From the NCBI RefSeq assembly GCF_055900595.2, contig NZ_CM148325.1: 64,000 nt of DNA; one strand, 5' to 3'. Shown here one piece after another: positions 15,301 to 46,180 of the stretch. The position numbers and the translations under genes are program-made. The notes under the pieces were generated by a model. It was given only the letters and a program-made list of their open reading frames with translations. It was not told the DNA's origin and ran no database searches. How positions within the stretch are numbered: position 1 is the first letter of the stretch; every line of letters starts with the position of its first letter.

Positions 15301-15600
15301 ATGGCGCTTACAAAAGCTGAAATGTCAGAATATCTGTTTGATAAGCTTGGGCTTAGCAAGCGGGATGCCAAAGAACTGGTTGAACTGTTTTTCGAAGAGA
15401 TCCGTCGAGCTCTGGAAAACGGCGAACAGGTGAAACTCTCTGGTTTTGGTAACTTCGATCTGCGTGATAAGAATCAACGCCCGGGACGTAACCCGAAAAC
15501 GGGCGAGGATATTCCCATTACAGCACGGCGCGTGGTGACCTTCAGACCCGGGCAGAAGTTAAAAAGCCGGGTCGAAAACGCTTCGCCCAAAGACGAGTAA
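15301..15600 (+). CDS. ihfA: Integration host factor alpha subunit
   Basis: 99 aa [55 protein letters not shown]. Confidence 0.96.
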
Positions 15601-15613
15601 TCTGATCTAACTA

Positions 15614-15638
15614 AAAAGGCCGCTCTGCGGCCTTTTTT
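15614..15638 (+). terminator. Rho-independent terminator after ihfA
   Basis: AAAAGGCCGC-TCT-GCGGCCTTTTTT. Confidence 0.8.
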
Positions 15639-15700
15639 CTTTTCACTGTCGAAGAGTCACCGTAAAATCAACGCTATGACACTTCAGCAGAACGGATACC

Positions 15701-38567: not shown

Positions 38568-39782
38568 TTACCCACCCGGAGCGACATTTTCCTTTAGCGA
38601 GTGATGCCACGTTTCTTTGCGGCTGCGTAAGCTGATAAACAGTGCCAGTAAAAAGCCGATGGCAGCGATGGCGGTATCGAACCACATAATATCGGCAATA
38701 CTTCTTTGGGATAGATGAGCCGTAATCAACGGAATAGTAAAGGTCGCAATACTGCCCGCACTGTAATAGATCCCTGTAGCTTTACCTTTAGCGTAGGGGA
38801 AACGTTCAGCCATTAATGTCAGGCCAATTTGCACAACACCTCCAGCAGAGGTAAAACCAATGACAAAAGCAAATATTATCACCACATAAAATGTGGGATG
38901 CAGACAGACGGTAAACAGAGCAATAAATGAGATAAAGGTGTACAGCATGAGTAATGTTGTTGGGCGAACGGTATTACGAATGAGTGGAGCGGTAATAAAT
39001 ACACAAAGCAGCGAACCCACGGTGTAGATACTGAGTAGTTTGATCGACATAGTGTATGACATGCCTGCAACAAATTGTCCGTACTGTGCCAGCCACTGGC
39101 TAACCAGATAAAAGGTTGCCATTGAGATATAGCCATATAAGGTATAACTGGCTAAATCGATAATTGAACAGCGATGTTCCGTAGAGTTGGTGGCTTTCTC
39201 TATGACAGGTAAGCGACGACCCGGATGGGGTGGGAACGTACAACGGTATAAAAACAGAGCATTAATAAACATAATGCCTGCGGCAATCATAAAGGACCAG
39301 CCGAACCACAGTTCAGCCCACACTAACAGGCTGATGATTAGCGGTAATAAAAATTGCCCGCTGGAAACAAATGCTTTAATTAAAATATTAGCTGTACCCG
39401 GTGAACGTGGAAAAGCTTCCATCAAACTGGGATAGGTGCCTGCATCGAGAAAACTGTTTGCCATTCCCGCCAGAAAGCCCAAACCATAAGCGATAATGAT
39501 GTTATTGGTGTGCAGGATGCCAAAAAAGAAGGCCATATAGCAGCACATCCCGAGCATGATAAAAGGGCGGCGACCAAAGCGATCGGATAATAATCCTGCA
39601 AAAAGCAAGACACTTAATCGACCAATACCCAGCGATGAGATAACTATTGAGACGCCTGCGGCATTAGTCTGCCAAAGCGTCTCCAGCGAGGCCATATTCA
39701 GGCTCATCAAAATGACGCCCATACCATGCACCAGGTAATTAAAATACAACCCAAGTGCGGTAGGGAAATAGGGATTTTTCAT
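38568..39782 (-). CDS. ydiM: MFS transporter YdiM
   Basis: 404 aa polytopic ORF, paralogue-like to ydiN. Confidence 0.88.
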   Translation of the reverse strand: MKNPYFPTALGLYFNYLVHGMGVILMSLNMASLETLWQTNAAGVSIVISSLGIGRLSVLLFAGLLSDRFGRRPFIMLGMCCYMAFFFGILHTNNIIIAYGLGFLAGMANSFLDAGTYPSLMEAFPRSPGTANILIKAFVSSGQFLLPLIISLLVWAELWFGWSFMIAAGIMFINALFLYRCTFPPHPGRRLPVIEKATNSTEHRCSIIDLASYTLYGYISMATFYLVSQWLAQYGQFVAGMSYTMSIKLLSIYTVGSLLCVFITAPLIRNTVRPTTLLMLYTFISFIALFTVCLHPTFYVVIIFAFVIGFTSAGGVVQIGLTLMAERFPYAKGKATGIYYSAGSIATFTIPLITAHLSQRSIADIMWFDTAIAAIGFLLALFISLRSRKETWHHSLKENVAPGG

Positions 39783-39880: not shown

Positions 39881-40237
39881 TTAACAAAGGCGCTCCAGAT
39901 CGTGTGCATATAATTCAGCGGCTACCGATTGATAGATCTTCCAGTCAATAAAATTGCCATCAGGGTAGACACGTTGAAACGCGGTTAAGTCAGGGAAAAA
40001 ACGCATGGTGTTGTTGCCGATGCGGTTATTTATTTTCTCTATGATGGCATGAAGATGTTTTTTTCGTTGCTGTCGCATAGCCAACAGTTGCTCGACCACA
40101 CGATCAGGAATGGCGCATTTGCCATTTTCCCACTGACGCCAGCTTTCACTGTCACCGGTCTGGGCAATCCAGGTCGCGCATTCATCAATAGTCATGGCAA
40201 AAATATGGCGAAGTGCCTGGAGTTCATAAGCGTTCAT
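39881..40237 (-). CDS. ydiL: Uncharacterised protein YdiL (118 aa)
   Basis: ATG at 40235-40237 (minus) gives MNAYELQALRHIFAMTIDECATW. Confidence 0.8.
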   Translation of the reverse strand: MNAYELQALRHIFAMTIDECATWIAQTGDSESWRQWENGKCAIPDRVVEQLLAMRQQRKKHLHAIIEKINNRIGNNTMRFFPDLTAFQRVYPDGNFIDWKIYQSVAAELYAHDLERLC

Positions 40238-40375
40238 CGTGTAATGGCTGCATGAAATAAACAATAAAATATAAATAACATTATCAGCCTGCCGACGGCT
40301 TGAAGAGAGTCACAGTATCTTGTGCAACATTATTGGAAAGAGTGAGGGGGCGAGGTAGCGAAGCGGAAAAATGTT

Positions 40376-40481
40376 AAAAAAAAGCCCATCGTGGGAGATG
40401 GGCAAAGACTACACACAGCAATTCGTTGTTTCACTCAGGGGATTTCCATGCTTATAAATCAATATGTTGATTTATAACCGT
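40376..40481 (-). ncRNA. rprA: Small regulatory RNA RprA (activator of rpoS translation)
   Basis: Minus strand reads ACGGUUAUAAAUCAACAUAUUGAUUUAUAAGCAUGGAAAUCCCCUGAGUGAAACAACGAAUUGCUGUGUGUAGUCUUUGCCCAUCUCCCACGAUGGGCUUUUUUU with terminal hairpin and U-run. Confidence 0.9.
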
Positions 40482-40666
40482 GAGCTAATAGTAGGCATAC
40501 GGACTTTTTGCGTCGATCAGATTCGTCTCATTAGTTTAAAAACTGTAAAGAATTTGCGACAGGTACTACCAGCTGAATGGCGGTAAGCAGGAAAATATAG
40601 TGAAGAGCAAGCAAATATCAATTAGCGGTGGTTAACAATCAGGCGGCAGAACCGCCTGATGAGAAA

Positions 40667-41779
40667 TTACTTATTCGGTTTCTCGATTTCGCCAAGTTCT
40701 TCGAGAATTTCTTCCGGTTGATCCGTCGGCGGTGGGACCTCTTCCACCCACGCGGCAAACAGACGCCAGGAAACGGCTAACAGAACCGGACCAATAAACA
40801 GACCGATCATCCCGAAAGCAATCAAACCACCAATAACGCCAGAGAGGATCAGGATCAGCGGTAAATCGGCACCCATGCGAATTAACATTGGGCGGATGAC
40901 GTTATCCAGCGTGCCAACCACACCGCTCCACACTAACAATACCGTTCCCCAGGTGGTATCGCCGGTCCAGTAGAGCCAGATAATCGCCGGAATCAGTACC
41001 GGCAATGGGCCAAGCTGGACAAGGCAGGAGAGGATCATTAACACCGTGAGCAACGTTGCATAAGGTACGCCGGATACCGCGAGGCCGATACCACCAAGCA
41101 CTGCCTGTACTAACGCAGTCACCACAACACCCAGCGCCACTGCGCGGATAGCTTGTGCCGCTAGCAGCACGGCGGCATCTCCACGAACGCCTGCCAGACG
41201 GGTAGCAAAATGGCGAATGCCTTGCGCCACTTGTTCACCGCGCCAGTACAGCAGGGCGCTGAAGAGAAGCATCAGCGCACAATGCACCATAAAGCGCCCG
41301 ATATGCGCCGCCTGCCCAACGAACCAGGTGGTGGTGGTGCCAATATAAGGACGGACTTTCGCCATGATCGCCGTACCCCCCATATCCAGCAAGTTGTGCC
41401 AGCCTGCATATAGCTTCGCGCCAATCACCGGAATGGTATTAAGCCACGCCAGATCGGGTAACGTCATGTCACCGCTGGAAATAGCTTTAATAAGCGGGCC
41501 GCTGCCATCGACAATACTGTTAACCAACAAGGCAATAGGGATGATAAACACCATCACTAATAACAGCGTCATCACCAGAACGGCGAGAGAGCGGCGGCCA
41601 AACATTATCTTTTGCAAACGTAACAATACCGGCCAGGTGGCGATAACCACCGTACCGGCCCATGCAAAGCCGAGAATAAAGGGTTGAACAATCCACAGAC
41701 ATGCCACAATCATGATGGCTAAAAACAGCACCGAAAGCAGAATTTGTGCGACATCCCTGGGCTGACGAACATTTACCAT
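40667..41779 (-). CDS. ydiK: AI-2E family (PerM-like) membrane transporter
   Basis: 370 aa polytopic ORF, recognised YdiK sequence. Confidence 0.9.
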   Translation of the reverse strand: MVNVRQPRDVAQILLSVLFLAIMIVACLWIVQPFILGFAWAGTVVIATWPVLLRLQKIMFGRRSLAVLVMTLLLVMVFIIPIALLVNSIVDGSGPLIKAISSGDMTLPDLAWLNTIPVIGAKLYAGWHNLLDMGGTAIMAKVRPYIGTTTTWFVGQAAHIGRFMVHCALMLLFSALLYWRGEQVAQGIRHFATRLAGVRGDAAVLLAAQAIRAVALGVVVTALVQAVLGGIGLAVSGVPYATLLTVLMILSCLVQLGPLPVLIPAIIWLYWTGDTTWGTVLLVWSGVVGTLDNVIRPMLIRMGADLPLILILSGVIGGLIAFGMIGLFIGPVLLAVSWRLFAAWVEEVPPPTDQPEEILEELGEIEKPNK

Positions 41780-42164: not shown

Positions 42165-45100
42165 ATGATTCCACAGATTTCCCAGGCACCCGGCGTCGTT
42201 CAATTGGTGCTTAATTTTTTGCAAGAGCTGGAGCAACAGGGTTTTACCGGCGATACGGCGACAAGTTATGCCGATCGTCTGACAATGTCGACCGACAACA
42301 GTATTTACCAACTTCTCCCCGATGCGGTGGTATTTCCGCGTTCAACCGCAGATGTGGCGCTGATCGCCCGTCTTGCCGCGCAGGAACGCTATTCATCGCT
42401 GATCTTTACCCCCCGCGGCGGCGGCACCGGCACTAACGGTCAGGCGCTCAACCAGGGGATTATTGTTGATATGTCCCGCCATATGAACCGCATCATCGAA
42501 ATTAACCCTGAAGAGGGCTGGGTGCGCGTTGAGGCCGGGGTGATAAAAGATCAACTCAATCAGTACCTGAAACCATTCGGCTACTTTTTTGCGCCGGAAC
42601 TTTCGACCAGCAACCGGGCAACGCTCGGTGGGATGATCAATACCGATGCATCCGGTCAGGGATCGCTGGTCTATGGCAAAACGTCAGATCACGTACTTGG
42701 CGTACGCGCGGTGTTGTTGGGGGGCGATATTCTCGATACGCAACCTTTACCCGTCGAACTGGCGGAAACGCTGGGTAAATCCAATACTACAATCGGGCGA
42801 ATTTATAACACGGTTTATCAACGTTGCCGTCAGCAACGCCAGTTAATTATCGACAAATTCCCCAAACTTAACCGTTTTCTGACGGGTTACGATCTGCGTC
42901 ATGTCTTTAACGATGAGATGACTGAGTTCGACCTGACGCGCATTCTGACGGGTTCAGAAGGGACGCTGGCCTTTATTACCGAAGCGCGGCTGGATATTAC
43001 GCCCTTGCCTAAAGTGCGCCGTCTGGTGAACGTCAAATATGACTCTTTTGACTCCGCGCTGCGTAACGCGCCGTTTATGGTTGAGGCGCGGGCGCTTTCG
43101 GTAGAGACGGTAGACTCAAAAGTGCTGAATCTGGCGCGGGAAGATATTGTCTGGCATTCCGTCAGCGAGTTGATTACCGATGTGCCTGACAAAGAAATGC
43201 TCGGGCTGAACATTGTGGAATTTGCTGGTGATGATGAGACGCTGATTGATGAGCGGGTAAATGCACTCTGTGCGCGGTTGGATGAACTGATTGCCAGCCA
43301 ACAGGCAGGTGTGATTGGCTGGCAGGTGTGCCGCGAACTGGCAGGTGTTGAGCGTATTTATGCCATGCGCAAAAAAGCCGTCGGCCTGCTCGGTAATGCC
43401 AAAGGAGCAGCCAAACCGATTCCGTTTGCTGAGGATACCTGCGTACCGCCGGAACATCTGGCGGATTATATTGCTGAATTTCGCGCGCTGCTCGACAGCC
43501 ACGGCTTAAGCTACGGTATGTTCGGTCACGTCGACGCAGGTGTCTTGCACGTCCGTCCGGCACTGGATATGTGCGATCCGCAACAAGAGATTTTGATGAA
43601 GCAAATCTCTGATGATGTAGTGGCGTTGACTGCGAAATACGGTGGTTTGTTGTGGGGCGAACATGGTAAAGGTTTTCGTGCCGAATACAGCCCGGCGTTT
43701 TTCGGTGAGGAACTTTTTGCAGAACTGCGCAAAGTGAAAGCGGCATTTGACCCGCATAACCGACTCAACCCAGGGAAGATTTGCCCGCCAGAAGGTCTCG
43801 ATGCGCCGATGATGAAAGTGGACGCGGTGAAGCGTGGCACATATGATCGACAGATCCCCATCGCGGTACGCCAGCAGTGGCGCGGGGCAATGGAGTGTAA
43901 TGGCAACGGTTTATGCTTCAACTTTGATGCCCGCAGTCCGATGTGCCCGTCGATGAAGATTACTCAGAACCGGATTCATTCACCGAAAGGACGCGCAACG
44001 CTGGTGCGTGAGTGGCTGCGTTTGTTGGCAGATCGCGGCGTTGACCCACTCAAACTGGAACAAGAACTGCCTGAATCCGGAGTCAGTTTGCGGACGTTAA
44101 TTGCCCGCACGCGCAATAGCTGGCATGCGAATAAAGGCGAATATGACTTCTCACACGAAGTCAAAGAGGCGATGTCGGGTTGCCTGGCCTGTAAAGCGTG
44201 TTCGACTCAGTGCCCCATCAAAATTGACGTGCCTGAGTTTCGTTCTCGCTTTCTGCAACTCTATCACACCCGTTATTTGCGCCCCCTGCGCGACCACCTC
44301 GTCGCCACGGTCGAGAGCTACGCACCGCTGATGGCTCGTGCACCGAAGACTTTTAACTTCTTCATTAACCAGCCGCTGGTGCGCAAACTCTCCGAAAAAC
44401 ATATCGGCATGGTTGATTTGCCGCTGCTGTCGGTTCCCTCGCTGCAACAACAAATGGTGGGGCATCGCTCGGCAAACATGACGCTGGAACAGCTTGAAGT
44501 TCTCAATGCAGAGCAGAAAGCGCGCACGGTGTTGGTGGTGCAGGACCCCTTTACCAGCTATTACGATGCGCAAGTGGTGGCGGATTTTGTCCGTCTGGTC
44601 GAAAAATTAGGTTTCCAGCCCGTGTTACTGCCATTTTCGCCGAATGGCAAAGCCCAGCATATCAAAGGCTTTCTTAATCGTTTTGCGAAGACGGCGAAAA
44701 AGACGGCGGATTTCCTCAACCGTGTGGCGAAGCTGGGGATGCCAATGGTGGGCGTCGATCCGGCGCTGGTACTTTGTTATCGCGATGAATATAAACTGGC
44801 GCTGGGCGAGGAACGTGGCGAGTTTAACGTCTTACTGGCGAATGAATGGCTGGCAAGCGCACTTGACTCACAGCCAGTGGCTACAGTCAGCGGTGAATCA
44901 TGGTATTTCTTTGGTCACTGTACCGAGGTTACCGCTTTGCCGGGCGCGCCAGCACAATGGGCTGCGATATTTGCCCGTTTTGGCGCGAAACTGGAAAATG
45001 TCAGCGTGGGTTGCTGCGGCATGGCAGGGACTTACGGACATGAAGCGAAAAATCATAAAAACTCGCTCGGGATCTATGAGTTATCCTGGCATCAGGCGAT

Positions 45101-45221
45101 GCAGCGACTGCCGCGTAACCGCTGTCTGGCGACCGGATATTCCTGTCGCGGCCAGGTAAAACGGGTTGAAGGCACGGGGGTACGCCATCCTGTGCAGGCT
45201 TTACTGGAGATTATTAAATGA
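42165..45221 (+). CDS. ydiJ: Large FAD-linked oxidase fused to Fe-S / glycolate-oxidase-type C-terminal domain (D-2-hydroxyglutarate dehydrogenase-like)
   Basis: 1018 aa ORF; N-terminal FAD-binding region, internal CxxCxxC motifs (CLACKACSTQC). Confidence 0.9.
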   Translation: MIPQISQAPGVVQLVLNFLQELEQQGFTGDTATSYADRLTMSTDNSIYQLLPDAVVFPRSTADVALIARLAAQERYSSLIFTPRGGGTGTNGQALNQGIIVDMSRHMNRIIEINPEEGWVRVEAGVIKDQLNQYLKPFGYFFAPELSTSNRATLGGMINTDASGQGSLVYGKTSDHVLGVRAVLLGGDILDTQPLPVELAETLGKSNTTIGRIYNTVYQRCRQQRQLIIDKFPKLNRFLTGYDLRHVFNDEMTEFDLTRILTGSEGTLAFITEARLDITPLPKVRRLVNVKYDSFDSALRNAPFMVEARALSVETVDSKVLNLAREDIVWHSVSELITDVPDKEMLGLNIVEFAGDDETLIDERVNALCARLDELIASQQAGVIGWQVCRELAGVERIYAMRKKAVGLLGNAKGAAKPIPFAEDTCVPPEHLADYIAEFRALLDSHGLSYGMFGHVDAGVLHVRPALDMCDPQQEILMKQISDDVVALTAKYGGLLWGEHGKGFRAEYSPAFFGEELFAELRKVKAAFDPHNRLNPGKICPPEGLDAPMMKVDAVKRGTYDRQIPIAVRQQWRGAMECNGNGLCFNFDARSPMCPSMKITQNRIHSPKGRATLVREWLRLLADRGVDPLKLEQELPESGVSLRTLIARTRNSWHANKGEYDFSHEVKEAMSGCLACKACSTQCPIKIDVPEFRSRFLQLYHTRYLRPLRDHLVATVESYAPLMARAPKTFNFFINQPLVRKLSEKHIGMVDLPLLSVPSLQQQMVGHRSANMTLEQLEVLNAEQKARTVLVVQDPFTSYYDAQVVADFVRLVEKLGFQPVLLPFSPNGKAQHIKGFLNRFAKTAKKTADFLNRVAKLGMPMVGVDPALVLCYRDEYKLALGEERGEFNVLLANEWLASALDSQPVATVSGESWYFFGHCTEVTALPGAPAQWAAIFARFGAKLENVSVGCCGMAGTYGHEAKNHKNSLGIYELSWHQAMQRLPRNRCLATGYSCRGQVKRVEGTGVRHPVQALLEIIK

Positions 45222-45916: not shown

Positions 45917-46068
45917 TCCTGACGTAATGCCGCGAGTTCGCCAAATCGGCCTGGATTAATCTTCGTCCAGGTTCGAGGGCCTTCTTAATACTGCTTATCT
46001 ACCCGCCTGATAACGTTCAAAAATAATACAAATCGCAGTTTGTGCTAAAACGGCGGCTTAGCTTTATG

Positions 46069-46180
46069 AGACTATTCTTATCGCCCCTTCGAGCTAAGCC
46101 ACTGTGAGTGCCGGAGATAAGCGCCGGATGGGGTAGAAACCCTTAAGCCTGTGATGCACAGACTTAAGGGTTTTCTTATT
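46069..46180 (+). ncRNA. rydB: Candidate small RNA (position consistent with RydB) ending in a strong terminator hairpin; bounds approximate
   Basis: CCCTTAAG-loop-CTTAAGGG hairpin at 46140-46170 followed by TTTTCTTATTT; ydiH-sufA intergenic location; sequence identity to RydB recalled only approximately. Confidence 0.4.

Follow-up and report, generated by a model that had tools for sequence, protein, structure and literature searches.

The small RNA RprA has been studied since 2001, and Papenfort et al. 2015 is said to be the primary paper on its processed form and on its target ricI. Through RprA, the Rcs phosphorelay, which responds to envelope stress, is linked to RpoS, the sigma factor of the general stress response, and to the control of curli and biofilm. 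The box recognised by the RcsB homodimer was defined as TN(G/A)GAN4TC(T/C)NA by Huesa et al. 2021 (PMC7913699). The Salmonella PrprA oligonucleotide co-crystallised with phosphomimetic RcsB is a 23-mer, CTATTGAGACGAATCTGATCG, covering -53 to -33 (PMC7913699). Binding of RcsB to the rprA promoter and its Rcs-dependent transcription have been published (PMC7913699, PMC3465796, PMC9262595).

Several targets of RprA have been described beside rpoS. Repression of csgD and ydaM was assigned to nt 28-45, 45-75 and 60-97 of the RNA (PMC3465796), while hdeD and lrhA (PMC5861431) as well as narP (PMC9262595) are also repressed. The published pairing sites for csgD, ydaM and narP are located within nt 28-97 (PMC3465796, PMC9262595). 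RprA is also processed. The processed form corresponds to the last 47 nt in PMC9262595 and is given as RprA60-105 in PMC3465796. According to PMC6202311, RNase E releases it from a loop, and the stem of the first stem-loop (SL1) was proposed there as the duplex recognised by the enzyme.

Identity and ends of the rprA gene

A covariance-model search with Rfam was done on the whole stretch of DNA under analysis (64,000 nt of contig NZ_CM148325.1, hereafter the window). A match to RprA (RF00034) was obtained on the minus strand at 40481..40374, covering model positions 1-108 of 108. It scored 118.5 bits against a gathering score of 70 (E = 1.6e-16), with maximal posterior probabilities throughout. 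No second RprA match was detected in the rest of the 64-kb window. Among the other RNA elements reported by Rfam are a Phe leader (11577-11701, plus strand, 74.4 bits) and STnc540 (15542-15700, plus strand, 69.3 bits), the latter lacking large internal parts of the model.

The rprA gene of E. coli K-12 MG1655 (b4431, 1770372-1770477) maps onto 40481..40376 with both ends agreeing and 106 of 106 nt identical. The A at 40481 represents +1, and the last T of a T8 run marks the 3' end. The gene, its terminator and its neighbours are the following:

40376..40481, minus strand: rprA, RprA sRNA of 106 nt (Rfam, K-12 identity, RefSeq E. coli annotation)
40384..40403, minus strand: terminator hairpin GCCCATC-TCCCAC-GATGGGC with a 7-bp stem, five of the pairs being G-C, and a 6-nt loop (terminator scan, Rfam consensus structure)
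40376..40383, minus strand: T8 run, the U-tail of the terminator, TTTTTTTT after the hairpin (direct reading)
40667..41779, minus strand: ydiK, AI-2E family transporter of 370 aa, upstream neighbour (open reading frame list, RefSeq annotation)
39881..40237, minus strand: ydiL, YdiL/DUF1870 family protein, downstream neighbour (open reading frame list, mapped RefSeq annotation)
39782..38568, minus strand: ydiM, downstream and on the same strand as rprA (open reading frame list, RefSeq annotation)
42165-45221, plus strand: ydiJ, divergent (open reading frame list, RefSeq annotation)

The T8 tail is presumably the expected proximal-face site of Hfq.

An earlier note, made from the letters of the window, had described a full-length RprA on the minus strand at this place, which was borne out by the RF00034 match over model positions 1-108 at 118.5 bits. 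Its coordinates, 40376 and a 5' end at 40481, are exact according to the mapping of b4431. The Rfam search that it had proposed was run and returned a full-length RprA well above the gathering score. Divergence in the rpoS-pairing region, which it had named as the observation that would speak against the assignment, was looked for and is absent, as no substitution relative to K-12 is present anywhere in the sRNA. Its terminator hairpin was likewise recovered as the 7-bp stem given above. The U7 tail attached to it was a trivial miscount, since eight T's are present (40383..40376).

The same note had read the locus as ydiK-rprA-ydiL. The open reading frames support this reading, and the gene order on one strand agrees with the RefSeq annotation of both K-12 and E. 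coli RMDEC465. The 1.2-kb block around rprA is present in 5,398-5,424 of 5,426 complete E. coli genomes, annotated as ydiK / rprA / ydiL. The intact rprA confirms that the window represents the E. coli ydiJ-ydiK-rprA-ydiL-ydiM region. Strain RMDEC465 (human stool, Thailand) is 100% identical over the 1.2-kb rprA stretch. Identity of at least 99% over 1.2 kb was found in only three of the 5,426 complete genomes, which therefore indicates a somewhat divergent E. coli lineage.

This divergence is visible in the flanking features, whose identity to K-12 ranges overall from 96.9 to 98.9%. It amounts to 97.4% for ydiK, 96.9% for ydiL, 97.3% for the 5' part of ydiM and 97-98.5% for the other intergenic parts. 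In the sRNA and about 118 bp of sequence upstream of it, no difference from K-12 was found, and the promoter, the RcsB box and the terminator are all intact. Of the 5,424 matching E. coli records, 5,224 show an identity of at least 99% over the 185-nt interval comprising rprA and its promoter. A decayed, non-functional copy or a chance resemblance, as opposed to an active sRNA gene, is an explanation of negligible probability. It would have to account for an E value of 1.6e-16 across the full length of the model, and for the lack of any substitution relative to the characterised K-12 gene and promoter next to genes which have diverged by about 3%. The near-invariance of the sequence in more than 5,200 genomes and the intact promoter, RcsB box and terminator equally argue against it.

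Judged by its sequence, the locus is the K-12 rprA gene itself, beyond mere family membership. It is predicted, almost with certainty, to be the canonical E. coli rprA, i.e. an independently transcribed, Hfq-dependent and RcsB-activated sRNA gene. The gene is already known, and all its defining features accessible to the analysis were found: score, identity, synteny, terminator, and the sequence, position and conservation of the box. The analysis itself established the identity of the gene, its boundaries, its structural elements, the sequence and position of the box, and the conservation.

Promoter, RcsB box and upstream sequence

Upstream of the +1 position, three promoter elements were assigned:

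40488..40493, minus strand: -10 hexamer TACTAT, -12..-7 (position relative to the annotated +1)
40511..40516, minus strand: weak -35 hexamer TCGACG, -35..-30 (direct reading)
40517..40530, minus strand: RcsB box TGAGACGAATCTGA, -49..-36, centred at -42.5 (consensus match, position, conservation)

The two hexamers are separated by a spacer of 17 nt, and the RcsB box directly abuts the weak -35 hexamer. Its sequence matches the homodimer box TN(G/A)GAN4TC(T/C)NA. An RcsB-dependent site had been expected earlier in the region 40482-40560. The search for a box upstream of 40481 located it at 40517-40530, that is at -49..-36, where the 14-mer is identical to the box inside the crystallised Salmonella PrprA oligonucleotide. 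Numbering of the promoter from 40481 reproduces the published register of -53..-33 exactly (PMC7913699).

The RcsB-box pattern is not enriched across the window, with 4 matches against 2.06 expected and 13 of 100 shuffles reaching 4. Therefore, the weight of the box at rprA comes from its position and its conservation. The core promoter was missed by a sigma-70 consensus scan (score 8/12) because the core is weak, as expected for an activator-dependent promoter. The promoter, which the consensus scan could not confirm, was placed with the help of the annotated +1, the numbering in the literature and the footprint of conservation.

In the arrangement proposed for this promoter, the Rcs phosphorelay of envelope stress has phosphorylated RcsB as its output, and this protein would bind TGAGACGAATCTGA at -49..-36 as a dimer. 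Adjoining the -35 hexamer, the dimer would switch on the weak sigma-70 core promoter (TCGACG / TACTAT). Transcription would then begin at 40481 and end at the terminator formed by the hairpin and U8. For RcsB dependence, as for Hfq dependence, target regulation and processing, the prediction is drawn from published work on the K-12 and Salmonella sequences, which are identical and near-identical, respectively.

In order to follow the promoter across Enterobacterales, a species-representative genome collection was scanned by plain pattern with the 22-nt core ATTGCTGTGTGTAGTCTTTGCC (RprA nt 60-81). At least 120 exact matches were obtained across the order. Those listed include genera of the Enterobacteriaceae, Erwiniaceae, Pectobacteriaceae, Yersiniaceae, Hafniaceae and Morganellaceae as well as Budviciaceae-like genera. 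Among the listed matches, 116 Enterobacterales loci had enough flanking sequence to be aligned with MAFFT, and the identity to the window was calculated for each column. RprA was also matched by Rfam in 12 of 12 long loci from other genera, with 87-115 bits.

The exact RcsB-box pattern was found upstream of rprA in 111 of these 116 loci from the listed matches. Across the 116 loci, the box columns T-49, G-46, A-45, T-40, C-39 and A-36 are at least 95% conserved. Conservation is 60-80% at the R and Y positions and low at the N positions, which vary freely and, like the spacer and the flanks, fall within 33-48%. The -10 hexamer behaves similarly: T-12, A-11, A-8 and T-7 are conserved to at least 95% and positions -10 and -9 vary. 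In the -35 hexamer, GAC is conserved to 80-95%. Mean conservation reaches 0.48 in the spacer, 0.40 far upstream and 0.33 downstream of the terminator, while the T8 run is 98% conserved in the same sample. As read from the alignment, this pattern of constraint is a textbook example of the footprint left by an RcsB box and a -10 element.

The five loci without the box pattern comprise two from Edwardsiella, two others and a shortened second copy in Phytobacter. In the Edwardsiella loci (L023, L026) and the two others (L087, L107), the best candidates in the upstream frame have at least two mismatches. The conserved 3' module of RprA may be regulated differently in these genera; alternatively, the transcript may be longer and the box may lie beyond the frame examined. 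Phytobacter massiliensis carries two copies on the contig NZ_HE578945.1. One of them (L048) is a canonical rprA, whose RcsB box and promoter resemble those of E. coli. The second (L049) shares only RprA nt ~36-106 and has neither RcsB box, promoter nor SL1. Its upstream sequence is unrelated, which therefore points to a truncated or re-promotered paralogue.

The RcsB-box pattern is also present at another place of the window, about 5.6 kb from rprA. The sequence TGAGACTATTCTTA (46067-46080, plus strand) ends 3 nt before the Rfam match to rydB (46083-46141, plus strand, 71.7 bits against a gathering score of 50) and overlaps the annotated 5' end of K-12 rydB. Compared with its K-12 counterpart, rydB of the window lacks 2 nt (AA) and carries one T/A substitution. 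K-12 keeps the RcsB-box pattern as TGAGATTATTCTTA, with changes confined to degenerate positions. The pattern is kept in Citrobacter youngae too (TGGGATTATTCTTA, locus L045, about 4174-4161, minus strand), again with changes at degenerate positions only, although the flank upstream of rydB has diverged there. The element could be an RcsB operator acting on rydB, or just a part of the RydB transcript. A literature search for rydB together with RcsB returned unrelated matches only (Rydberg, RCSB PDB).

Within E. coli, the sequence further upstream of rprA is variable. For the 76 nt at -89..-164, four genomes are identical to the window, 3,602 show 95-99% and 888 show 90-95% identity, and about 930 E. 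coli genomes gave no megablast match. The contrast between the constrained rprA gene and promoter and this variable sequence therefore places a sharp upstream boundary of the functional unit near -118.

A promoter scan detected a sigma-70-like site, TTGATA-16-TATATT, which matches the consensus at 10 of 12 positions (40621..40594, minus strand) about 106 nt upstream of the +1 of rprA. This rare lineage might also transcribe rprA from there and produce a constitutive, RcsB-independent isoform of ~210 nt with an extended 5' end. The quality of the match speaks for this possibility, as do two lineage SNPs (40601 C>A, 40599 C>T) by which the CATATT of K-12 is turned into TATATT, and the terminator scan detected no terminator-like site between the upstream site and rprA. 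However, the K-12 sequence at this place already matches at 9/12 positions. The spacer is AT-rich, and promoter-like matches turn up often in it (3, with 1.4 expected per kb). Furthermore, the intergenic part that holds the site shows poor conservation among E. coli genomes, just 4 of 5,426 of which carry exactly this 76-nt variant. This poor conservation and the rarity of the variant argue against selection for a function of the site. Its use is considered very unlikely, and it is probably inert. If the site were active, the extended isoform might make the control of sigma-S and biofilm partly independent of envelope stress.

A 9-bp GC-rich hairpin, ATCAGGCGG-TTCTG-CCGCCTGAT, is found directly after the stop codon of ydiK (40636-40658, minus strand), with no T-run behind it and with one SNP relative to K-12 in the loop (40651). 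For ydiK, it may serve as a weak terminator or stabilise the mRNA. In another reading, RprA would mainly be a 3'-UTR or read-through product of ydiK instead of arising from its own promoter. Termination of ydiK could indeed be leaky, as the hairpin past its stop (about 40658..40636) is not followed by a T-run. Nevertheless, this origin is very improbable. The TAnnAT -10 element and the RcsB box stand at a fixed distance from +1 and are conserved across genera, conservation is absent between ydiK and the box, and RcsB binding to the promoter and Rcs-dependent transcription have been published.

RNA structure, processing and target pairing

Both the minimum free energy and the centroid folds of RprA predict a 5' stem-loop at nt 5-30, a largely open centre, a weak small hairpin at nt 60-74 and the terminator at nt 79-98. 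The folding z-score of the whole RNA is -2.5 relative to dinucleotide shuffles. Three parts of the molecule were delimited upstream of, or overlapping with, the terminator:

40452..40477, minus strand: SL1, RprA nt 5-30, an 11-bp perfect inverted repeat UUAUAAAUCAA / UUGAUUUAUAA with a 4-nt loop (minimum free energy and centroid folds)
40408..40450, minus strand: target-pairing region, nt 32-74, mostly single-stranded (best local rpoS-leader duplex, published target sites)
40376..40422, minus strand: 3' 47 nt, nt 60-106, processed species and order-wide invariant block (literature, conservation)

The central region includes ...GGAAAUCCCCUGAGUGAAACAACGAAUU..., which is complementary to the rpoS leader. 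A pairing scan was done with a 36-nt sliding window and the K-12 rpoS leader as target. The best local duplex was obtained between RprA nt 32-74 and -128..-93 of the leader, with -27.9 kcal/mol, and 12 of 100 shuffled cores were as good. This top site belongs to the distal leader, to which the binding of activating sRNAs has been assigned (PMC3783183). Given that 12 of 100 shuffles reached the same level, the assignment of rpoS pairing rests on the identity to the experimentally studied RNA. A whole-molecule calculation with RNAduplex, in which RprA was confronted with the 597-nt rpoS leader, was also tried and discarded as uninformative, as it produced giant interior loops and 61 of 300 shuffles were as good.

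By analogy with the studied RNA, the central single-stranded region would act as an anti-antisense on the inhibitory hairpin of the long 5' leader of rpoS, by pairing with the upstream arm of this hairpin. The pairing would free the ribosome-binding site of rpoS and lead to more sigma-S synthesis. The same and adjacent regions would repress csgD, ydaM/dgcM, hdeD, lrhA and narP. A cut by RNase E would release the 47-nt 3' species, which may retain some regulatory activity.

Conservation is unevenly distributed over the RNA. From about nt 59 onwards, the alignment columns are conserved to 95% or more. The start of the invariant block, at nt 59-60, is also that of the published processed species. 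An analysis of 68 dereplicated sequences with RNAalifold also revealed an invariant 3' half, with covariation in the terminator stem (C-G to U-A in 16 sequences, A-U to G-C in 4). The 5' half, including ...AAAUCCCCUGAGUGAAACAACGAAUU..., is conserved in Escherichia, Citrobacter, Enterobacter, Pantoea and Erwinia-like genera. In Yersinia, Proteus, Photorhabdus, Providencia and Edwardsiella, this half could hardly be aligned at all. Taken together, the positions contacted by RcsB and the processed 3' 47 nt are the most constrained parts, and the rpoS-pairing 5' half is a more recent feature of the Enterobacteriaceae.

Comparison with known systems

The importance of the rprA gene described here goes little beyond its correct annotation. 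It places the Rcs regulatory arm in a somewhat divergent E. coli strain, and the comparative data restate the published picture with a clean footprint.

The closest relative is RprA of E. coli K-12 (b4431; RF00034), with the same 106 nt, the same promoter to about -118, the same RcsB box and terminator, and the same position between ydiK and ydiL. The two sequences differ only outside the gene and the core promoter, by SNPs at -118, -120 and -170 and by a 1-nt insertion (C) 25 nt downstream of the terminator. The rprA promoter of Salmonella Typhimurium has the same 14-bp box TGAGACGAATCTGA in the same -53..-33 register (PMC7913699). One base differs just upstream of the box, where E. coli has CTAATGAGA and Salmonella CTATTGAGA. 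For Salmonella Typhimurium RprA, the same three stem-loops and the RNase E processing to a short 3' form have been described (PMC9262595, PMC6202311). The target ricI is confined to the Salmonella virulence plasmid (PMC9262595).

DsrA and ArcZ are functionally comparable, since they are also Hfq-dependent and act as anti-antisense RNAs on the distal rpoS leader (PMC3783183). They differ from RprA in that their sequences are unrelated and their loci are different. Their signals are low temperature for DsrA and the aerobic/anaerobic ArcAB system for ArcZ, whereas RprA represents the Rcs envelope-stress arm.
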